DNA from: Acanthopagrus schlegelii
Lineage: Eukaryota
Length of the DNA: 64,000 nt
Assembly (NCBI GenBank): GCA_041753875.1
Contig: CM085480.1
Coordinates: 5,671,958-5,735,957 of the forward strand
Reading direction: 5' to 3'
A program made the position numbers and the translations under genes. Under the pieces are notes generated by a model. The model worked only from the letters and a program-made list of their open reading frames with translations. It made no database searches and was not told where the DNA came from. Positions 4,654-56,533 of the stretch are shown in pieces (the stretch's first letter is position 1; each line of letters begins with the position of its first letter).

Positions 4654-6375
4654 AATAAATTACTGAGGTATAAAAGGTAAGTGGATCATATAGTGCGGGT
4701 GGATGAGTTGTGTTTACAGGAATAATAATTCAAGCGCATTAGTAGTGTGTTGTGGAGTGTGTTATCACGGCAGGATCATTGGGGTATGAGAGTGCGTGAA
4801 TGCAGCGGCTAATAACCGCACACCTACAGGGCTGCAGACAGACACGGCTGTTTCGTCTCACATGCTGGCTGTGAGCTTCACACCAGACAGAACACATCAG
4901 TGGCACATAAGCGCCAGTGAAAGCTCCGTCCATTTAACCGTCCATTAAACACAGACACCGACCTCATTATGGGCCGTTGCCGTCCGGAGTACAAGTTCCT
5001 GTCAGCAGCACAGCTCCTGAGACTTTTTACCGACCAGGCTGTTGACAGAAATACGAAGGATGAGAACAGTTTTCAAGTATGCTTGATGATGACCATAGAG
5101 GACAAAAATGGCATTTCCTGCACCCAGCGGAGCTCCGATACAACACTCTTAAAGGTGTTTTTTTTTTTCCTGAAAACCGAAGACACATATATGCCAGGAG
5201 AGCTTGCACAACACGACTGTCACAGTTAAAATTGCTACATCTGGCCATGCTTTCATGAAGAAGTTCTCTTCCTCTATCTGTAAACAAAATCAACTGCTCT
5301 GCATCACCATGCAGTCACATTCTTGCCACTGCGACCATCTACAACGCTGTGGTTTCATCCACAGGGGAATAATCTTCCAGTTAGAATATGTGAGAAAAAT
5401 GTCTCTTACAATTGCTGGCTGTACAGAGAAACACTGAGTGTTTGATCATAATTTAAATAACTGTGAGAATACTTTATGATCCAAGGCCAAAGAGATGCAT
5501 AAGAGCTACATATCCATATTCATATGGTAGTTAGAATAGTTCAATCAATGCTCTTTCATCTGCAGAGCTGAAAACAATTCAAAGTGCAGAGCAGGACTGA
5601 AGACGAGAACACATTACAGAAAGACAAAGGCTGTCAAATGAATGGCTGCAGAGGCAAGGGAACTGAAACAAGTCAAAGAAAATCATTTCTACACTATAAT
5701 TATAATCCCTATGGCAGATTTAGTGTTCTTTGTTCTTTTTATGTACTCATTCCTACTTGTCTGATACCAGCATCTGGTACTCTATGTGCTTTATAGAGGT
5801 CTCTAAGACGGTTGATTCTGTTATTTTTGAACACTACATCAAAACATTTACACATGCATTTTACAGAAGTTCCTCAACCAACACTACTAACGGTTAAGTG
5901 GAGTTTGATGTTGCAAAGGTGAATGTTCTAAACTTAATGACTACTTGATCTTGAATTCAGAACATAATGTTCCTCCCCCTAATTTAACTACTTGGTACAT
6001 CAAGAATAACTCAGTGATTAAGTGTCTCTTATACTGCAGCAGGGTCTAAAGTGGTAGCTTGAAATCTCATCGACACCTGCACTCGGCTGGAGAATGTGCT
6101 CTGCTCCAGAGGCGTTATCTGTGTTCCCAAACCTCCCTCACGAGCTACAGCGAGTCCTGCTGCCTCAGTGTCATCATCCTGACACCCAGGTCTCAAAGCT
6201 CTCACATTTTAGCGCTAACAAGATAAAAAATGCATCATGCGAAACAACACTAAACAATTTTTGTGCTTTACCGTTGACAGCTGTTGGTTTCATACTGAGA
6301 TTATTTTATAACTCTTGTTCACTCTGTTCTGGCTGCTACGTAAAGCCATGAATAAATAAATGGTAAATGGCTGCA

Positions 6376-9142: not shown

Positions 9143-9147
9143 CACAG
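9143..9147. other. Target-site duplication CACAG (5' copy). The matching copy lies at 12560-12564.
   Basis: The 5' junction reads aaCACAG|TGTCATGA. The 3' junction reads GTGACA|CACAGacactg. Confidence 0.6.
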
Positions 9148-9806
9148 TGTCATGACTCCTGTTTTGTTTTGTCTTGTGTCATGTTTTGATTTCTCTATGT
9201 CTTGTCTCATGCTTTGATCTCTATGTCTTGTGTCTCATGCTTTGATCTTCCATGCCCTCATGTGTCCTTTAGTTCTCCCCTCTGGCTCCCTCTGTCTGTT
9301 GTCTTGTTCCCTCCTGGTCTGTTCCTCTGTGCTCCTCCCCCTCGTTATCTCACCTGGCTCCCTTCCTCCTCTCTCTCCTCACCTGTTCCTCGTCATGTCA
9401 TTAGTGTCTGTGTATTTAGTCTCTGTGTTCCCCTCACTCCTTGTCTGGTCATTGGATTCTGTCTCGTGTATTCTGTCTTGTGTGATAGTTGTTTCATGTC
9501 CACGTTCCATGCTCTTTGTTCCTTGCTCCTTGTTCCATGTTCCATGCTCCATGTTCCTGCCCCGGTTTGGTATGTTTGGTTTCAAGTTTTTTCATGTTTA
9601 AGTTGAACTTTGATTTTTTTGTTTTGTACTTTGTCTGATTATTGTTTGCTACTTTGCCTCTGCCTTTGTTTTGTCTACTTTTGGTTTTTGTGTCAGCTTT
9701 AATTAAAGCTCGCTTTTTGTTCCACGTTATCCTTGACTCCCTTGTGTAACTGCGTCTGGGTCCACCTTCTCCTTCCATAGTTTTCCCCTTTTACCCCAAC
9801 CTGACA
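9148..9806 (+). repeat. 5' LTR
   Basis: It matches 11880-12559. The ORF-track translations 9202-9606 and 11934-12338 are identical (134 aa), as are the 9230-9601/11962-12333 and 9379-9585/12111-12317 pairs, so at least 405 bp are 100% identical. The last ~200 bp differ by T-rich indels. Confidence 0.85.
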
Positions 9807-10032
9807 GAATGACCAGACCTAATAGAAAGGACCCAGCAGATTACAGCCTACAGCTTTGTAGGCAGGGAGATAAACTGCTGGAGATTTTGAGTGGTGAGGC
9901 TGACACCGAGGATAAGCTAAGAGCCATATCAGGTTTTGATAACGAACTGATTATTAGGCCTTGGTTAAAAAAAAATCCCATTTATCGCACTTTTTAAATC
10001 AGAGCTGGATAACCTCAGAAAGGCCTTGGTGG

Positions 10033-10214
10033 CAACAGCCACAGCCAAGCTACCAGCCCATGCCTCAGCCACAGCCAAGCTACCAGCCCATGCCTCAGCC
10101 ACAGCCAAGCTACCAGCCCATGCCTCAGCCACAGCCAAGCTACCAGCCCATGCCTCAGCCACAGCCAAGCTACCAGCTCCAGCCTCAGCCCATGCCACAG
10201 CTCCAGCCTCAGCC
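10033..10214. repeat. Tandem array with 30-bp period (cagccacagccaagctaccagcccatgcct, about 5-6 units)
   Basis: Direct read; near-perfect copies. Confidence 0.9.
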
Positions 10215-10449
10215 GAAGTGTCTCCGTTTTGTGGAACCCGGCTGGCCTACAAAGTGCCCCCACCAAGAAAGCAACGAGCACGTCCACGTCCTGGCTCCTT
10301 GAAGTCAGGCTCAGAAGCTACAGCCACAGCCACAGCCACAGCTAAGCTCCCAGCCCAGGCCGCAGCCTCAACCGAGCTCCCAGCCCAGGCCTCAGTCTTA
10401 ACCCTGTCGACACCTGCCAGTGGTCTTCAGTCAGCGGACCAGATGAGGC

Positions 10450-11150
10450 CTGTTCCTGCACCTCGGTCGGAGGACCGGCCGAGGCCCACGCCAGGTCCAG
10501 CGCCTGTTCCTGCACCTCGGTCGGAGGACCGGCCGAGGCCCACGCCAGGTCCAGCGCCTGTTCCTGCACCTCGGTCGGAGGACCGGCCGAGGCCCACGCC
10601 AGGTCCAGCGCCTGCTCCTGCACCTCGGTCGGAGGACCGGCCGAGGCCCATGCCAGGTCCAGCGCCTGCTTCTGCTCCTCGGTCGGAGGTCCTGCCGAGT
10701 CCCACGCTAGGTCCAGCGCCTGCTTCTGCTCCTCGGTCGGAGGCCCGGCCGAGTCCCACGCCAAGCCCTGTGCCTGCTCCTCGGTCGGGGGTCCGGCCGA
10801 GTCCCACGCCAAGCCCTGTGCCTGCTCCTCGGTCGGGGGTCCGGCCGAGTCCCACGCCAAGCCCTGTGCCTGCTCCTCGGTCGGAGGTCCGGCCGAGTCC
10901 CACGCCAAGCCCACTGCCTGTCCCTCGGTCGGAGGCCCGGCCGAGTCCCACGCCAAGTCCACTGCCTGCACCTCGGTCGGAGGCCCGGCCGAGTCTCACG
11001 CCAAGTCCACTGCCTGCACCTCGGTCGGAGGTCCGGCCGAGTCTCACGCCAAGTCCACTGCCTGCTCCTCGGTCGGAGGCACGGCCGAGTCCAACGCCAT
11101 GTCCACTGCCAGCTCCTCGGTCGGAGGCCCGGCCGAGTCCAGTGTGGCCT
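10450..11150. repeat. Tandem array with 48-54 bp periods (cctgttcctgcacctcggtcggaggaccggccgaggcccacgccaggtccagcg and variants, about 13 units), GC- and CpG-rich
   Basis: Direct read. Unit lengths are 54 and 48 bp, both multiples of 3. Confidence 0.9.
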
Positions 11151-11321
11151 CCAGTGGGTCTCAGCCCACGCTTTTGCCGTCAGCCTCCAGAGGAACCCAG
11201 CCCACACCTACGCCTTCGCCTTCGTCTACGTCGCCAGCCTCCAGCGGGTTCCAGCCCGCACCTTCACCTTCGTTACCAGCCTCCAGGGGGTTCCAGCCCG
11301 CACCTTCGCCTTCGCCGTCGT

Positions 11322-11645
11322 CGCCGGCCTCCGGCGAGTCTGAGACCGCGCCTACGCCTTCGTCGCCGGCCTCCGGCGAGTCTGAGACCGCGCCTACGCC
11401 TTCGTCGCCGCCCTCCGGCGAGTTCCAGGCCGCGCCTACGCCTTCGTCGCCGCCCTCCGGCGAGTTCCAGGCCGCGCCTACGCCTTCGTCGCCGCCCTCC
11501 GGCGAGTTCCAGGCCGCGCCTACGCCTTCGTTGCCGGCCTCCGGCGAGTTCCAGGCCGCGCCTACGCCTTCGTCGCCGGCCTCCGGCGAGTCTGAGACCG
11601 CGCCTACGCCTTGGTCACCGGTCCCCAGCGAGTCTGAGACCACGC
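11322..11645. repeat. Tandem array with 42-bp period (gcgagtctgagaccgcgcctacgccttcgtcgccggcctccg and a gagttccaggccgcg variant, about 7.5 units)
   Basis: Direct read. A 2-unit 39-bp repeat follows at about 11745-11825. Confidence 0.9.
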
Positions 11646-11865
11646 CTACGCATTGGTCATCAGGTTCCAGCCTGCGCCTTTGCCTTTGTCCCTGGTCTCC
11701 AGTGAGCTCCAGCCCTTGCCTCCACGCTCTTGTTTGTTTGGACTCTGACCCTCCTCCAGACCCCCTCCACCCTCCCGGCTTTGACTCTGACCCTCCTCCA
11801 GACCCCCTCCACCCTCCCGGCTTCACTTGGATTTTTGTCTTGAGGGACATCTGGGAGCTGTCCCT

Positions 11866-11876
11866 TAAGGGGGGGG
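11866..11876 (+). promoter_or_regulatory. Polypurine tract (AAGGGGGGGG) just upstream of the 3' LTR
   Basis: The sequence is cccttAAGGGGGGGGctc|TGTCATGAC, the canonical PPT position for plus-strand priming. Confidence 0.5.
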
Positions 11877-11879
11877 CTC

Positions 11880-12559
11880 TGTCATGACTCCTGTTTTGTT
11901 TTGTCTTGTGTCATGTTTTGATTTCTCTATGTCTTGTCTCATGCTTTGATCTCTATGTCTTGTGTCTCATGCTTTGATCTTCCATGCCCTCATGTGTCCT
12001 TTAGTTCTCCCCTCTGGCTCCCTCTGTCTGTTGTCTTGTTCCCTCCTGGTCTGTTCCTCTGTGCTCCTCCCCCTCGTTATCTCACCTGGCTCCCTTCCTC
12101 CTCTCTCTCCTCACCTGTTCCTCGTCATGTCATTAGTGTCTGTGTATTTAGTCTCTGTGTTCCCCTCACTCCTTGTCTGGTCATTGGATTCTGTCTCGTG
12201 TATTCTGTCTTGTGTGATAGTTGTTTCATGTCCACGTTCCATGCTCTTTGTTCCTTGCTCCTTGTTCCATGTTCCATGCTCCATGTTCCTGCCCCGGTTT
12301 GGTATGTTTGGTTTCAAGTTTTTTCATGTTTAAGTTGAACTTTGATTTTTTTGTTTTGTACTTTGTCTCGTTCGTTTTGTTGCTACTTTGCCTAGTTGAT
12401 TTTGTTTTGCTACTTTGTCCCATTGCCTCATCTGTTTTGCATTTCGGCTTTGATTATTAAAAGCTCGCCTTTTGTTCTCTTTATCTTTGACTCCCTTGTA
12501 TAACTGCGTCTGGGTCCACCTTCTCCTTCCATAGTTTTCCCCTTAACCCCAACGTGACA
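11880..12559 (+). repeat. 3' LTR
   Basis: As for the 5' LTR. It starts tgtcatgactcc at 11880 and ends ccccaacgtgaca at 12559. Confidence 0.85.
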
Positions 12560-15500
12560 CACAGACACTGAAGTATATTTTGAATAGACCTACATACACC
12601 ATCCTGCTGCAGTAAGTCATCTGTGTGGCATCAAATGTGTATTAGTCCACATTAAAAACTGCACTCAAAAATGCACAAATGACTCCTGTTAGACTGATGT
12701 CTGCTAAAGGTTACAGAGCCCGTCCATTTTGGGAAATTATTTAACCTTTTGAATAATTGAAAATACATACCAGTTACCTGCATTTTGGAAGAGTCTCTGT
12801 GTTTATAGAGGGCGGCACAAATCAATTATATCATATGAATTTAAAATAAATTAAGCTTTGTGTAAAGTTAGCTTTGAGTAATGATCCCATGAGCTGTTGA
12901 TGGGACACTTCATATCAAACACCGATAATTACACTTCTTCTGTTTATATGGTCATGATTACACTAACCTCCGCAGTTGCAAGAAATTAAACAAGAAAAGA
13001 TAAAAAAGAAAAAAAGAAACTTGCTGCATTACTGAACTACTACTCTCACAGGCAGTGTTGCGGCTACAGCGCAGCTCCTGCCTGCCCTGTCTGTTACCCT
13101 GTCAGGACTGTCAATAAATATGATGACATGAGTTCCCCTTATCCCCATTTAAACAGCTAGAAGTTGGAGGACTGTTAAGAAATAAAAAGAGAGCGCACAG
13201 GAGAAAATAAACTGGCCTTCACCTCATGTGTGTATTCTCTTCGTGTGTGATATATTCTACACAAACAGTTTTCAGGTCTATTTTTGAGAACCACACGCGT
13301 CACGGTAAAAATAGGCACAATTCCAAATCTTTAGAACAAGTGCCTCGCTTGACTTGACACCTGTGTGAAAAGCATGCATGCAGTGGGCCTTCTCTCAAGT
13401 GTTAACATGGACGCAGAAATGAAAAGGGGGGCATTCTGCCGAGCAGACATTGCTCATGCAGCCAGTGTGTCTAGCCCGTAACTCTACAATAAAGTAACCT
13501 AGTTCACCTACTTCTTCCTAATTCACATTCTTTTTTCATGACAGCACCCCCAGCAGGGTTGGTATTGTAGTGATTAGACTTACTGTGTTGCATCCCCCAA
13601 TTTCACAAGACCGTCTCAGGAATGAACAGAAACCTTGCTGTGTTCACCACCACTGACTGACTGGACCACTGAACAGTGCTCCCGCCAACTCTGCACAGTG
13701 GACAAAAAAGGAAAGAAACTGAAATCCACCAGCTGTACACCATCTACGAAACACCTCCGACCCTGTGATTTTCTCATTGGCAGACAGAGGCTTCCACCCT
13801 GACACTGCTCGGATATCAGCAGACCAGAAACCTGTGATTCTCGACACAAGGGTTTCACTTGTTAAGCTACTGAACGAGGATTGTTCAAGGTACAATGGAC
13901 AAAACATAACATTCTGCAAAAATGAATCAACAACAGGCTACAAATCTTGTCTAATTTGGAACGCTTCAAACACCTGATAGCTTATAACAGAGATGGAACT
14001 TCATCATGGCTTCATCATGAGGACCCAGTCAATCAGGAGATGTTAAACATTACAGTTCTTATTTTTCCAACAATGAACTGAAAACAGTTGCTCACTCACA
14101 GAAGAAAAGCCGAATTCTCCCTTGATAATTTATACCTTGACAGAGAGTTCTTTTGTGACAATGAGCTCACCACCTGCTTATCTATTCCAATCTGCTAAAA
14201 GGAAGAAGAAAAAAAATATGCAGTTATTCAAATGCTCCTCAAGGACATTCTGGGACCATTACATAAACTCTCTTTGACCATTTGTCTATATAGTTAGTCT
14301 GTATAGTAGATGCACTCTTGTCATTTTCAGTGCACACATGATTTTGCATACATCCTGAAAGTATTCCCATCTCCTCTCCCCCTCTCGCTCTCACTCACGC
14401 ATAAACCAACACACCCATGGATATTCACACACCCGGGTGTCTATTTCCATCGCCTCTTCACTCGATGCCCTGTGCAGATAGCGTCACAGGTACACCAACT
14501 ATGCATGCATATGCAGAATCCAAAGGACTTTAATATTGAACATGTCAGTGAATTCCTGAGCATTACAAACAGATCATATCTAACAGAGGAGGAACAACAC
14601 AGTTACTCCATGTGGAACTTTTCAACACCTGCTCAACCTTTAACTGACGGCTTCCCTGCTGAGTTCTGCAAACATTTGGGCTCATGGATATCCTTTGTGC
14701 TCAGCAGAGTTGCACTGAAACTCTACCTCCAGTCTTCCTCTAATAATGAAAATATTGCTCTTAATTCCTCATTAAAGATATAATGACCTAATTATAAGAC
14801 GCTCAATGTCACAATTTGTATTTGGTGACCAGACTGTGACATGATGAGAAAAAATACACCTACACCATCTCTCTCTGTTGGTCTCTGGGTTTCCCTCATG
14901 GGCCTTTACTTCAGAAAAACTTTCAATGTTAGTTTGAAAGACTGAAAATGTGTGATTATAAAGACTACACAGCCAACAGTCACATTAGTGACATTCAAAT
15001 GAGGCTGTCAGGCATTTTGCTTTCAAAAGCCAATGGCAATGTTGAAACATAGCATACATAATGCACAATGTATGCTTTACCTACCAACAAATAGGCCTAA
15101 ATTACATGTGCTTTATCTCCCAAACACCAATCTGTACACTATAGAACATGGGCGGGTGGTGCTTTGCTTCTATATCACTGTTCAGGTTCCAGACTATGTG
15201 TATTATATTTGTATAATATATTTCACAGAACTGGGAATTACAAGCCCACTATAAATGTATGATTTATCTGAAGGTCATTGTCCTTCACAGAGTTTGCAGA
15301 AGAAACAACCTGTTTGAACCATTGCAAATGTATCCACTTTAATGATGAACAGAACATAACAACAGAGTCTCATGCCCAGCTCGTCAAATACTGTTCAGGG
15401 CCCCTTGTATGTTTCAACAGTCATCAATGTATAGCACTCCAGCCATACCTTCAGTCTGGTATTGACTCTGAAATAACAGAAAAAACATCAAGATTTATAT

Positions 15501-43989: not shown

Positions 43990-44250
43990 AAGAGCAATAT
44001 TATTAACTTGATCCAGTAATTCTGAACCAAGGTCAGTACAGTCAGGAAACATGTTGTTCCCACCTCTACTGACATCAACCGGTGGGTTTCATGACGAGAA
44101 GCTATCTGGCTGATGGGGCCTGTTGTGCCTGAGGTCAGATTGACAGCTACTGTGACACAGTCCGACCTCCTCAGCAGGTCATCCAGGGTCTCGCAGTAAC
44201 TCGCTCCAACTGCCTGCATATCATCTATACTTCTGACTAGAAGAGTGAAC
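43990..44250 (-). pseudogene. Fragment resembling a D-isomer-specific 2-hydroxyacid dehydrogenase (GRHPR-like), probably a pseudogene with a frameshift
   Basis: Minus ORF 43908-44294 has ..DMQAVGASYCETLDDLLRRSDCVTVAVNLTSGTTGPISQIA... Remembered GRHPR reads ..[37 protein letters not shown]... In another frame ..NPPVDVSRGGNN.. resembles ..AVFINISRGDVVN... The similarity is short and comes from memory alone. Confidence 0.3.
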
Positions 44251-45309
44251 AGATGAACTTCTTTTTTTCCCTTTTTTTTTAGACTCCCACTCAAATTGTC
44301 AACAACAGTTATAAAGCGAGCGCATGCAGTTTTTCAAGGAATGGTAGCAACAACAATGAAAAGGCTACGGTTGGCACAATTTATCCTCTAAGAAAAGTAT
44401 TACCTTCATAACAGCTGGCAACCTTCAATGGCTACACACCTCATACACATTGTCAATTTAAATGCTGGCATAGACACTTTGACGCCACCCACAGGTTTCT
44501 AAAAGGGACCAAATAAAGCTGGTAAAGACAGTTGGCACCGTCCGTGGCCATCTTGACAGGTCCTGACTCCACCTAAGTCACCACACATCAAAGATGGGCA
44601 ACAAGGTGGAGCGTGGACGCTGAAGCTAGTGAACCAAGCCTACCAAGCTGGGAGCTACCAAGCTAGCAAAGGCTAACAAGCCATCACTCTAAGATCCCAC
44701 AGGATGCATGCCCATTGCATTCCGGCTCCGGTACAGTTTTGCTCCATCATCCATCAACCCCCACCTGCTGCTTTTTGAGTCTGGCACGGCACAGCATTGC
44801 CAGGCAGCTGGAGTTGCGAGACCGAGGAGTTCCTGCAATAATTACATAAATCACGCGGGACCGCAGTTGTAGGCACGTGCTAACAGGACAACGCAAAGTG
44901 TTCCCAACCAAAGGATTAGCAGTGCTTGTATTTGTCTTTTGTTTTAGATTTTCGTGCTGCCGTCAACACAGAGTTGTAGCCTTTTCCGTGCCACCGCACC
45001 ACTCTGTGCTGAATTGCTGCGTTGGCGGAGCCGTGACAGAGCGGAGCCAGACCGAACACGTATCCGGTGGAATCTAGCCAGCAGTGTTCACGCATAAAGA
45101 CGAGTTCAGTATCGTCTCTGATCAAAGTGGCAGCCATCGTATTCTGTTTCTTTGTGCTGTCCTGCAATGACTTTTCTTTTCCCACAACTCTGTTCTCTCC
45201 TCTGTTCAGTTCGTTTACTCCTCCTGAAGCTCTGGGCTCTGCTCGAGGCTGTCCCCTCCAGAGCTCGCCAGCTTAGCAGCTGTCTGCCGGTCACCAGGGT
45301 CACATATTA

Positions 45310-45914
45310 ATCCAAAACAGTGGCGAATATCAAGGTTTAAAGGGAAAACAAAAAGGTGAACCCAAACGCAGACTCAGGGGAGGCAGGATCGAGGGAACAA
45401 AAGGTGAGCTGTATTTGACAATAGCTGAGAAAAACAAAAACCAAGAGAACAGATGAGAATACCAAAAAAATTCTGAACTAAAACAGAGTACAACCAAAAA
45501 GCAAAGTTGAAATCAAAAATGCAAAATAAGAAAATCAAAATCCAAAACAGAGACTGGAGACGCATGAGACCCAAGGAACTCGAGGGGGACATCACTCAAA
45601 CACCAGCAACAAACTGACAGAGACTACGTGGGAAACCAAAGCTTAAATACACAGACACACTGATGAGGGAACGAGGAACAGGTGGGGAGAGAGGAGGGAG
45701 GAGGACACATGAGATAATGAGGGAAAGACACAGAGGAGAGAGCATGAAGGAAACAATACTGACAGACAGACAGAGACAAACATGCAAGGATGAAAATGAA
45801 AAGACAGAGGGGAGAACATAGAGGAAAGAACACTGAAGAGACACAAAAAGGGGACAAAAATAAAACATAAGACACAAGATGCAACACAAAGACATAGAAT
45901 CATGAACCATGACA
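45310..45914 (-). repeat. Solo LTR of the 9148-family, inverted orientation
   Basis: It ends ..catgaaccatgaca, the reverse complement of the family 5' terminus TGTCATG... The block aaatacacagacacactgatgagggaacgaggaacaggtggggagagaggagggaggaggacacatgagataatgaggg matches reverse-complemented 9148-LTR sequence around 9300-9420. The start region ggtttaaagggaaaacaaaaaggtgaacccaaacgcag matches the reverse-complemented LTR 3' end. Confidence 0.65.
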
Positions 45915-53264: not shown

Positions 53265-53793
53265 TTCTCACTGTTGGAATTTAGAGAGGAGGTGAGGACC
53301 CACATGCAGAAACACAAGGGAGACAGGCAGGAAAAGGAACTAAAGATAAGCTTTTAATGAAAACTCAAAACCATGAAATACAAAAAGGGGGCAAAGAAAA
53401 GCTAAGACAAAGTACCAACTAAGAAGAGCAACGTACAGCCATGGAAAACACAAGAAAATAAAGCAGAAAAATAATGCTAGGGATAAAAGAACAGAAAATA
53501 TATCATGAGGGGGGGAACGTGGGAGACACTGGAGGAAACAGGCTGAGGTGAAACACGATGAAACACAGGAGACAACGGAACGATCCGACAAAGACAAGAG
53601 GGAGCACAAAGGCTATATACACACCAACACACTAATGAGAGGATGAGGTGCAGGTGGAGGCGAGGCGGGGAACGGAACGGAACACCGCTTGAAGGAGGGA
53701 AATCACACGGTGGGAGGAACTGAAAAGCAACACCCGACACACGAGGGCACCATTTCAAAATAAAACAGGAACAACAAAGCCGCGATCATGACA
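53265..53793 (-). repeat. Solo LTR of the 9148-family, inverted orientation
   Basis: It ends ..gcgatcatgaca, the reverse complement of TGTCATGA. It begins ggaggtgaggacccacatgcagaaacacaaggg, similar to the reverse-complemented LTR 3' end. The block atatacacaccaacacactaatgagaggatgaggtgcaggtggaggcgagg matches the family. Confidence 0.6.
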
Positions 53794-56533
53794 CTCACAT
53801 GTACAGGAGATGCCATTACAGTGTCACTTCAGTCTTAACAGCTTTTGGTTCGGATGTGTGTGTACACCGCTATTAAATATTAAATAATTTAAATTTAAAT
53901 CATTTCCAGTAATGTAAAGGTTCCCATGTTTTCGCACAGCTGAAAGAAAGTGTCACGTCGGCACCCTCAGTTTTACTCATTTTACTCCCTCGGTCCATCT
54001 GTCATGCCCGGCTGTCACTAACCTCTCCTGTCATTGCAGAGCTTGCCATTCTGCACCTTTCCAGGGGTTGCACTCAAAGTATTACATTCGCCTGATCCCC
54101 ACACATGCCCCCTCATTAGTCACTCAGTATATTACCAGCCACTTTTCCCCCACTTCTCCGCCATATCACATTGTCCTCTGCAGTTCTAGTGCTCCAGTAA
54201 ATGTCTTTATAAACATCAAGTGATCTGTGCTTGAGTCCTGGTTTTGAATCCTCACATCTGGGTTCAGAAACATTACAGAAAGACTAAACTATGAACAATA
54301 ATGCAGCAAAGTCATCCACGCAGTCATTGTTCTGACTTAGGAAACGTCGGGCTTTCATCCTCACAGGGCGGCGGTGTCTTGTTGATCACGATTCCTTACA
54401 TGTCTCATTTCTAATTCTTTCTCTGTCGGCTTGCTATGGTTTCCCCCCCATTTATTATGCATCTCTTTTGATGAGTGCAAGTGTTGCTGATAGGGGACCA
54501 CACATTTCCATATCCCTCCCACTTTAATACGGAGTGAAAGAATGACTGCACGGTTCACTAATGGTCTTGTCTTGAATCTGCAGACACGCTGTACATTTGG
54601 ACCATAAAATCTTTGGATTCCATTTGCAATTCCCCACTGCTAAAGCCCTGCTGAGCTGACACACTTTCTCTGTTTTACTAATGAAAAGCGAAAGGCATGA
54701 AGTCCTATATGGACTCTAAATGGAAGAAGGATTGAACAATGTATTATCAAACTATTATGTGCATTGATAAAGTAAGGTTTTTGTAAATCCACCGAGATTA
54801 AACCATTCCTTTAAATATACTGTGTCAAAACACAATGCTGGAGGGGTGAAATAAATGATATAATTATGTATTCTGGAGTAACATGGTATTCAAGCTCGTA
54901 CTGGCCCATATTACTCTAATCACGAAACATTATGTGGAAATTACAGTTTCTCTTATTTCTAAGAGTTACTGACTATTTTTATGGTTGAGGCTGCTGATCA
55001 TTTTCACAGAATTGCTCTAATGTAGTTAATGTGTTCATCAGGGGCAGCAGGGCACGTTAATCTTTATAACGCAGGGACAAAGTTATCTGAGGCTATTTAG
55101 GTAATTCTTCATTTTACAGATCTGTAAATTCAGTGGGAAAGTGGGTGGTAGTGACCAATGACTCCCCAATTAAAACAATTTTACCTCAGAATGTACAAAA
55201 AATTACTCCAATATTTTCAATAGTGATAATGGGATGTTTTCTAACGAGCAATAAATAGCCGGTGATTTCTAGTTTCTGTCCAACTCCCCCCTCAGCGGGC
55301 CACTACATTGGACTGAGTCCAATTTCCCGCTAGTTAATTATTATCATTATTATTATTATTTTTAAGCCTCAATAGACAATAAGGAAGGAGACTTTTAAAG
55401 TGGGACATTAGTAAATTGGCTCTTCTTGTATTAGTCTGTAATTAGCTATTGAAAAGACACTATTTGGAATACATTTCTAAAGTTGGACTAACTGCTGAAA
55501 ATAATACAGAAATTGGTGAGAACTGTAAAAAAAAACATAACTTAAATTTAATGACCTTGACAGAAATAAGATGAAAATGATGTTGCGACACCTCACTTCA
55601 ATGTAGCGGCCTGCTGAGGGGAAGGGAGACAAAAAGTGGCTGGAAGTTTCCTCAAAATGTATTAAATAAATTACTGCTTATGGGAAAATAGAGGTACATT
55701 ATTGCAGCAACATTATGTATCCCTTTTACCACAAAATAACAGCTTCAGATTCTTGTTGATAGTACAGTGTCTTGTAAGAGGGTGAATCACAGGCTGATAT
55801 TGAACTAAGAAAACAGAAAACACAAGTTCTTCGTGCCAAAGGCTGGTAAAACTTCTAAGTCTGAAATTGATAGGGTTGATCAGACATTGCTAGATTTGTT
55901 ATTCATTATAAAACTATTAAGAGAACAGTGTCAGAGTTAAGCTTCAGATCAATGTTTTTAATCAAAAGGGTAAAAGACCTATTTTTAACAAGGTTTTAAT
56001 TGACTTTAATGGATAGACTTAAGTTGGCTATCCAGTGGGAATTTTCATTTATCACGAGTGCCAACGCACATTTCACACAGATGAAACTTGCACTCGTGAA
56101 AAGGTACATTGAGTGTGACGGATCCTCATTTCAGCCAAGTAGTCGATCAACCCTAATGACTACCATGACTTCATGATGCCAGATAGCATGGCAATGAATT
56201 CAGTCGCTGCAAAAACATATCAATGGTGGCCATGAATGTCAACCTCACAGTGGTGCAACACAGTAAGTCAGGGGATGAGTCTGTCAGACGAATCCGTACA
56301 ATTTCTCCAGTCGTCTCTACTCAAGTTTAAATGGCAATCCATCAGACTGTTGTTGAAATATTCAATCGTATAGTGGTAGTGGACTGGCTGACTGTCAGAC
56401 AGACAGACAGAGAGAATATTGACAGGACCAGGGCAACATGAGGAAAACAACACAACAAGTACAGGACAGTTTAAAAAGGCCCAGCCAGAGCATAAAAGAA
56501 CAAGGTGACATTAGGAGTCTGGTGGCGTGTTGT

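Follow-up and report, generated by a model that had tools for sequence, protein, structure and literature searches.

What kind of element occupies positions 9148-12559 of the 64,000-nt stretch of contig CM085480.1 analyzed here (the window, to whose positions all coordinates refer), how could it have been copied without encoding the enzymes of its own mobilization, and how recently did it arrive? As a whole, the data are best explained, with a probability of roughly 0.75, by a single insertion of a non-autonomous long terminal repeat (LTR) retrotransposon that would have primed its own reverse transcription, would have been mobilized in trans, and later acquired mosaic LTRs. It is a member of a teleost family that the sea bream Acanthopagrus schlegelii carries as well, and it was probably inserted fairly recently. 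As a genomic parasite it is of an ordinary kind, a further instance of an already known element type; its main value is that of a clear vertebrate case of a self-primed non-autonomous element and of a warning against dating insertions by LTR identity.

The anatomy of the locus (Table 1) can be read directly from the DNA. Two direct repeats of 659 and 680 bp, spaced 2732 bp apart, flank an interior of 2073 bp within an element of 3412 bp; both begin with TGTCATGA (TGTCA...) and finish in (C/G)TGACA, and thus have TG...CA ends. An initial annotation of this DNA had placed LTRs of about 660-680 bp around a 2.07-kb interior and had reported a perfect 5-bp target-site duplication (TSD), and the measured lengths agree with it, as do both copies of the duplication, which sit exactly at the junctions. 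Within each LTR, the boundary between the putative unique 3' (U3) and repeat (R) regions is drawn from the TATA-like box and the position of the self-primer described below, and the hexamer ATTAAA near the end of R would serve as the polyadenylation signal; the motif aligned with it is the canonical AATAAA in four relatives (L003, L007, L008 and L009).

Table 1 Features of the element and of related LTR copies, in window positions
Feature	Position	Strand	Sequence or size	Basis or remark
5' TSD	9143-9147	+	CACAG	Read directly; at LTR junction
5' LTR	9148-9806	+	ends CCTGACA	Aligned with 3' LTR
Putative U3	9148-9442	+		TATA-like box and self-primer position
Tandem repeat inside U3	9170-9248	+	28 bp, x2.9	
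TATA-like box	9413-9419	+	TATTTAG	First T 30 nt upstream of 9443
Predicted RNA 5' end and self-primer, start of R	9443-9453	+	11 nt	Exact complement of 9808-9818
Putative R	9443 to ~9725	+	~280 nt	
Divergent tail of 5' LTR (distal R and U5)	9636-9806	+		Begins in T-rich minisatellite
Polyadenylation signal, 5' LTR copy	9702-9707	+	ATTAAA	Read directly
Putative unique 5' region (U5)	~9725 to 9806	+		
Self-priming-type primer-binding site	9808-9818	+	11 nt	Starts 1 nt after 5' LTR end
Broken remnant of family open reading frame	9809-9997	+	62 codons from upstream ATG (9809), then stop	Compared with L001/P0003, P0006 and alignment A2
Tandem array	10036-10208	+	30 bp, x5.8	Tandem Repeats Finder (TRF)
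Family-conserved segment	10215-10313	+	99 bp	Conserved in L001, L002, L003
Second 30-bp block	10321-10395	+		Degenerate
Tandem array	10455-11140	+	54/48 bp, x13.7	TRF; GC 73%
Tandem array	11217-11658	+	42 bp, x10.4	TRF
Two more 42-bp units	11741-11823	+		
Polypurine tract	11867-11876	+	AAGGGGGGGG	Read directly; spacer CTC at 11877-11879
3' LTR	11880-12559	+		Aligned with 5' LTR
TATA box, 3' LTR copy	12145-12151	+		
Self-primer, 3' LTR copy	12175-12185	+		
ATTAAA, 3' LTR copy	12456-12461	+		
3' TSD	12560-12564	+	CACAG	Read directly
LTR relic	ends 23806	-		Only short motifs in common (promoter, poly(A), U5)
LTR copy c45	45914->45328 (with leader 45150-45914)	-	587 bp, then decayed leader	Best block 75-78% identity
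Solo LTR c53	53793->53272	-	522 bp	5-bp duplication GTGAG

Two direct repeats 2732 bp apart might also result from the local tandem duplication of a 2732-bp unit (A-B-A) in which no transposon took part. The exact TSD, the TG..CA termini, the polypurine tract (PPT) and the primer-binding site (PBS) all speak against such an origin, and dispersed relatives with target-site duplications of their own effectively refute it: the window itself contains the solo LTR c53 between copies of GTGAG, and in other assemblies the loci L009 and L003 are flanked by CAACT and GTGAG, respectively. Related DNA of this kind was reached via protein searches with translations of the interior, which led to eleven loci (L001-L011) from open reading frames (ORFs) called on public-assembly contigs: a Logan run supplied one, and the other ten come from ENA metagenome assemblies in which DNA of a fish host is evidently present.

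The interior encodes none of the domains that mobilization requires. Specifically, a Pfam search of its six frames with stops masked recovered no family at E<=0.1 and a single match at E<=1 (DUF1376, E 0.28), and the gag and pol genes (protease, reverse transcriptase (RT)/RNase H, integrase) that characterize an autonomous element are absent. This agrees with the earlier statement that the interior has no similarity to RT, integrase or protease, and the classification of the element as non-autonomous, structurally intact and devoid of gag, pol, protease and integrase holds up. Less accurate was the description of the interior as consisting of minisatellite arrays only: tandem arrays make up about 72% of it by TRF, and both a 229-bp leader at its 5' end and the 99-bp segment are conserved across the family. 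Outside the element, the 64-kb window contains no retroelement-like ORF of at least 130 aa, and Rfam and tRNA scans of the window returned no Rfam families and no tRNA genes. An autonomous partner was found neither in the window nor among the proteins related to the interior. The long proteins returned by an exhaustive search were rejected as candidates for that role, as they are host proteins (G-protein-coupled receptor, Roc-COR and zinc-finger types) that match only proline-rich repeats.

How, then, might such an RNA be primed for reverse transcription? The first ~70 nt 3' of the 5' LTR contain no TGG, and the element therefore has no PBS for a tRNA 3' end. The 11 nt that begin one nucleotide after the LTR, AATGACCAGAC, are the exact complement of GTCTGGTCATT, the 11-mer at which the RNA is predicted to start, 30 nt downstream of the first T of the TATA-like box. 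A TATA-like motif occupies the same aligned position in the diverged LTR copies c45 (TATTTAAG) and c53 (TATATAG) of the window, and in L004, L007, L009 and L010. Only 9 of 5000 LTR shuffles reach an 11-nt complement within the 20 nt that follow the LTR, and in the folded RNA starting at 9443 the 5' end pairs with the PBS at a probability of ~0.95 for most pairs and a lower one for the last three. An operational definition of self-priming in plant elements asks for a complement of 10 bp or more whose start lies 0-5 bp behind the 5' LTR (PMC6317226), and the match here covers 11 of 11 bases with an offset of 1 nt. The mechanism has been implicated among hosts that range from fungi up to vertebrates (PMC4600332, PMC6317226).

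The two 11-mers have also changed together within the family. Across five distinct sequences, 92.7% of the cells pair and three of the eleven pairs change on both sides (UA/CG/AU, GC/UA and AU/GC), which gives a covariation score of 0.345 compared with 0.172 in shuffles, four of 500 of which reach 0.345, and with 0.04-0.10 in controls whose partner was shifted 1-3 columns. In L009, both 11-mers are unchanged though the LTR is only 75-82% identical. In L010, the 3' LTR carries GTCCGTTCATT and its own PBS reads AATGAACGGAC, a perfect 11/11 match, with one CpG-type change in the 5' LTR, and in L011 the primer GTCAGTTCGTT and the PBS AACAAACTGAC differ by one mismatch. L004 and L007 show one-sided changes, which leave one mismatch in the former and three G-U pairs plus one mismatch in the latter.

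Because of this covariation and the position of the primer relative to the TATA box, self-priming is the best-supported mechanism, and on sequence grounds we regard it as probable. The competing idea is that the element was tRNA-primed and derived from an endogenous retrovirus, BEL/Pao or Copia, which would make the 11-nt complement a coincidence. More than one superfamily has a 5-bp TSD and TG..CA ends, and there is no pol by which the element could be classified, both of which leave room for such a descent. Nevertheless, it appears most improbable: the missing TGG within ~70 nt of the LTR end speaks against a PBS of the endogenous-retrovirus type, complementary to a tRNA 3' end, and the complement is rare in shuffles, is located where the transcript is predicted to begin and shows covariation among subfamilies. 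As a separate observation, the primer-equivalent of c45, GTCAGTTTGTT, is fully complementary to the PBS in the distant relative L011; within c45 itself, whose PBS region is decayed, no complement between primer and PBS was found.

These features are compatible with the following life cycle. Its starting points, namely the anatomy, the lack of coding domains, the pairing of primer and PBS with its covariation and the mosaic LTRs, are read from sequence, whereas the transcription start, the RNase H cleavage, the mobilization in trans and the sequence of events behind the mosaic are inferred. RNA polymerase II would start about 30 nt 3' of the LTR TATA box, at ~9443, and polyadenylation after the ATTAAA of the 3' LTR would yield an RNA of about 3 kb with a long R of ~280 nt. 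The first 11 nt of this RNA would then fold over and pair with the 11-nt site next to the 5' LTR, and an RNase H cut would free the RNA 5' end as the minus-strand primer, as in the fission-yeast element Tf1, making a tRNA unnecessary. Subsequently, the PPT would prime the plus strand, and integrase acting on the TGTCA/TGACA ends would generate the 5-bp duplication. RT, RNase H, integrase and capsid would all have been supplied by another element, since this copy encodes none of them and its own orphan ORF, described below, is broken. After insertion, a further change, or recombination with another copy or a complementary DNA (cDNA), would have made the last ~170-190 bp of one LTR different from those of the other.

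It is this last step that bears on the age of the insertion. The first 488 bp of the two LTRs are identical (9148-9635 and 11880-12367), which extends the identity of at least 405 bp reported initially; the ORF pairs 9202-9606/11934-12338 and 9230-9601/11962-12333 are identical, as are two minus-strand pairs. The first difference occurs at 9636/12369, LTR position 489, and the tails beyond it contain 15 substitutions in 165 aligned positions in addition to 12 indel events with 31 gap columns; the claim that the LTRs diverge only by T-rich indels is thus not borne out by the alignment. The Jukes-Cantor distance of the tails is 0.097, compared with no difference over the preceding 488 bp (Fisher p 6.5e-10). 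Whole-LTR identity is 93.1-93.6% (blastn) with differences that are unevenly spread, and a single divergence rate along the LTR is incompatible with these data.

Reverse transcription copies both LTRs from one minus-strand template, and for that reason the tails would have diverged later. It follows that a single recent round of reverse transcription cannot have left both LTRs as they now stand, and recombination, gene conversion or an assembly chimera is needed. The possible routes to differing tails are ectopic or cDNA-mediated conversion, intra-element conversion of the 488 bp of an old copy, or a chimera. Because the tails diverged beside 488 identical bp, LTR identity is unusable as a clock at this locus. 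The identity break lies inside a T-rich minisatellite and inside the putative R, and its position matches that of a structural junction in L009, where a 1160-bp derivative (4983-6142) flanked by CAACT has two ends with only their last 169 bp in common and a junction at about LTR position 490-491. This coincidence suggests a recurrent recombination point near LTR position 489-491. Elements whose 3' LTR lacks U3 and the proximal R are found in L009 (4983-6142), L001 (~170-1943) and L003 (885-2615), two of these three with intact 5-bp duplications.

The sharp switch from identity to 15 substitutions in 165 positions plus 12 indel events is also what would be expected of an old insertion, no longer young at all, whose LTRs diverged in place and whose first 488 bp were homogenized by a recent gene conversion between the LTRs. 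Polarizing the tail differences with the relatives assigns nine derived states to the 5' LTR and 19 to the 3' LTR, with four ambiguous; derived states relative to outgroup copies in both tails, like the broken family ORF of the window copy, are in keeping with a long residence. However, the interior arrays have retained CpG observed/expected ratios of 0.81 (54/48-bp array) and 1.28 (42-bp array), whereas the window as a whole has 0.44 and the old relative L001 has 0.42, and neither the TSD and PPT nor the two 11-mers are damaged. The 3' tail furthermore keeps a repeat unit that is missing from the 5' tail and is also found in another subfamily (L010), which fits tails of different lineages equally well as decay in place. 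In view of these data, an old insertion seems unlikely, and a fairly recent insertion with a converted tail is somewhat favored over an old, partly homogenized one. The designation of the element as very young is therefore supported by the 488 identical bp, the intact TSD and the retained CpG of the arrays, and contradicted by tails that are ~10% diverged and differ by indels as well.

Could the boundary instead be a product of the assembly, with the 488 bp or one of the tails stemming from collapse, polishing or mis-joined reads of repeat copies? A sharp boundary at a T-rich minisatellite within a repeat would be a plausible place for such an error. An artifact of this kind is nevertheless improbable, given that junctions, TSD and interior are coherent, that the element is only 3.4 kb long and that no Ns or other anomalies were seen. 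A further alternative is that the LTRs were non-identical from birth, through two different co-packaged RNAs whose minus-strand DNAs both jumped in the long R, followed by an intermolecular plus-strand transfer that brought together a 5' LTR and a 3' LTR differing in their distal R-U5 segments. The identity break at LTR position 489 does fall inside the putative R (296 to ~580) and close to the structural junction of L009 at position 491. Two rare events would be required, however, and retroviral plus-strand transfer is overwhelmingly intramolecular; the observations fit ordinary gene conversion just as well, and we give this origin very little credence.

Several observations weigh against the overall reading of a single self-primed, trans-mobilized and later mosaic insertion. 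One clean recent insertion predicts no difference between the LTR tails, which differ by ~10% plus indels, and the polarization of these differences (nine, 19 and four) fails to single out which LTR was altered. The PPT is present as initially annotated but does not abut the 3' LTR, from which it is separated by the 3 nt CTC. The covariation comes from only five distinct sequences and several of its changes are CpG-type transitions, and the complement is imperfect in L004, in the 5' LTR of L010, in L011 and, most clearly, in L007. The transcription start at 9443 is a prediction from sequence. Lastly, because neither an autonomous partner nor a relative bearing RT or integrase was found in the window or among the related proteins, mobilization in trans and a Tf1/sushi lineage are unproven.

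The family extends beyond this one insertion. The initial annotation listed three inverted copies of the same LTR family at about 23.8, 45.3 and 53.3 kb and called the family locally abundant. All three are indeed related and lie on the minus strand, but they are strongly diverged: overall identity is far below 80% for each, and the relic at 23.8 kb falls under the thresholds of blastn and nhmmer. They are older relatives and not recent siblings, and they attest an old related lineage in the window rather than local abundance of the same family. The presence of the family in Sparidae is indicated by P0001, an NCBI protein of Acanthopagrus schlegelii annotated as 'butyrophilin subfamily 3 member A2-like', whose residues ~315-460 are the translated 48-bp and 42-bp arrays; this C-terminal tail is either an exonized transposon fragment or an annotation artifact. 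An exact-pattern scan of Joint Genome Institute (JGI) metagenome contigs with a 21-mer from U5 gave no match, and no record turned up for the Acanthopagrus protein or for either of two window ORFs when they were looked up exactly. In L001, the 5' LTR is cut off by a sequence (1-170) that resembles a fish Tc1/mariner-type transposon.

Does the family encode anything of its own? An exhaustive HMMER search with P0003, a gene call in L001, returned 38 proteins, among them many short ORFs that start exactly with MDPADYS... and align as a domain of ~75 aa (alignment A2). The ratio of nonsynonymous to synonymous substitution rates (dN/dS) for pairs with an intact frame is 0.19 between the window copy and L009, 0.34 between L001 and L009, and 0.68 between the window copy and L001, compared with 0.93-1.48 in shifted frames of the same alignments; the frameshifted copies L004, L007 and L008 were left out as too noisy. 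The 99-bp segment, which reads EVSPFCGTRLAYKVPPPRKQRARPRPGSLKSGS in the frame of a 559-codon ORF, behaves similarly when compared with L002, with a dN/dS of 0.26 in frame and of 2.11 and 1.19 in shifted frames, albeit in a small sample. As such, the family seems to carry, or to have once carried, an orphan gene, and these ratios are signs of past purifying selection on its ORF. An AlphaFold2 model built on a 19-sequence alignment shows residues 1-78 of P0006 as a three-helix bundle, in which 68 residues score above 90 in the predicted local distance difference test (pLDDT).

No Pfam family matches the domain, and neither Pfam nor a fold search indicates similarity to Gag, capsid or a zinc knuckle. 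Foldseek against PDB and BFVD gave nothing below E=0.1, only non-significant matches to helical bundles, and no protein match links the domain to Gag, RT or integrase; a word-indexed protein search with the 62-aa leader ORF likewise returned no homologue. In the window copy, the family start codon is replaced by AAG (9827-9829) and a 1-nt frameshift at or beside the A-run 9967-9975 ends the frame. Both this broken ORF and the self-priming PBS had escaped the initial annotation. Two of the gene calls also require care: P0003 (L001 333-1589) and P0002 (L002 5397-6500) are not obtained from their DNA with the standard code, with in-frame TGA codons of L001 read as W in P0003, and because of these hidden stops they are not intact ORFs.

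A more far-reaching proposal, which at present is doubtful, holds that the family is an undescribed vertebrate LTR type: one that primes itself, parasitizes a sushi-like retrotransposon, lacks gag and pol but keeps up an orphan gene of its own, and bears mosaic LTRs from subfamily recombination. If this were true, the product of the orphan gene would combine a confidently folded three-helix domain at its N terminus with a basic motif of the PPPRK type and a long tail of proline-rich repeats, and purifying selection would have kept the gene, for instance as a packaging or nuclear-import adaptor, and the mosaic LTRs would record recombination between subfamilies at an R junction that recurs in relatives.

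How does the element compare with known systems? It resembles Tf1/sushi elements, whose own RNA 5' end primes at a PBS beside the 5' LTR and which share the TG..CA ends and the 5-bp duplication; the self-primer complement of Tf1 is likewise 11 nt long. In contrast to them, it has no gag, pol or chromodomain, its R appears to be long (~280 nt) and its interior consists of minisatellite and a broken orphan ORF, and its likeness to them in function lies in priming. BHIKHARI of zebrafish, a non-coding LTR element family that is transcribed in early embryos, offers a parallel: it too is a few kb long and found in a teleost, lacks gag and pol, and presumably relies on another element.

Among plants, non-autonomous LTR elements are classed as TRIM (<1 kb, limit ~1-1.5 kb, with short LTRs) or LARD (>4 kb), with an undefined range of 1.5-4 kb between them, and ten such families with internal satellite-like arrays are described from sugar beet (PMC13570524). 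Like these, the present element has kept LTRs, PBS, PPT and TSD, has lost coding capacity for transposition, which makes it reliant on the proteins of another element, and has an interior expanded by arrays; unlike them, it resides in a teleost and has a self-priming rather than a tRNA-type PBS. Its 3412 bp and its LTRs of 659 and 680 bp exceed the dimensions of TRIM elements, and it stays below the ~4 kb of LARD elements, within the undefined range. TR-GAG elements, a term for non-autonomous LTR elements that retain only a gag ORF (PMC13570524), share with this family a single ORF and the absence of pol, and the family ORF shows signs of past purifying selection; it differs in having no recognizable Gag by Pfam or by Foldseek against PDB and BFVD, and in being broken in the window copy.

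These results have several consequences. They provide covariation-backed sequence evidence for Tf1-type self-priming in a teleost LTR family without gag/pol coding capacity, and they imply that LTRdigest-style searches, which look for a PBS via tRNA 3' ends, would wrongly score the element as lacking one. The 488 identical bases beside a tail that is ~10% diverged are a caution for dating by LTR identity. In addition, the 54/48-bp and 42-bp arrays form a CpG-island-like block of ~1.1 kb (GC 72-73%, CpG observed/expected 0.8-1.3) that the element brings along, and family members have been drawn into a butyrophilin-like gene model in Acanthopagrus schlegelii, a capture of relevance to the quality of annotation and perhaps to gene regulation.

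Some minor observations concern the arrays and the older copies. All 14 units of the 54/48-bp array (10455-11140) can form a GC hairpin of 8-10 bp, mostly 9-10 bp, of the form CTCGGTCGG-NNNN-CCGGCCGAG with -12 to -20 kcal/mol; the stems do not vary among the units, and there is no evidence of selection on this structure. Downstream of the c45 relic, a stretch on the minus strand at ~44060-44200 translates to ...ETLDDLLRRSDCVTVAVNLTSGTTGPI... and has a weak, sub-threshold Pfam match (E 0.037) to D-2-hydroxyacid dehydrogenases, in their NAD-binding domain; a pseudogene or an exon fragment may lie here. Finally, c53 (53267-53798, minus strand) and the unrelated L003 element (880-2620) both have the duplication GTGAG followed by AACA, compared with CACAG followed by ACAC at the main element, and the agreement between c53 and L003 may reflect a weak target-site preference or coincidence.

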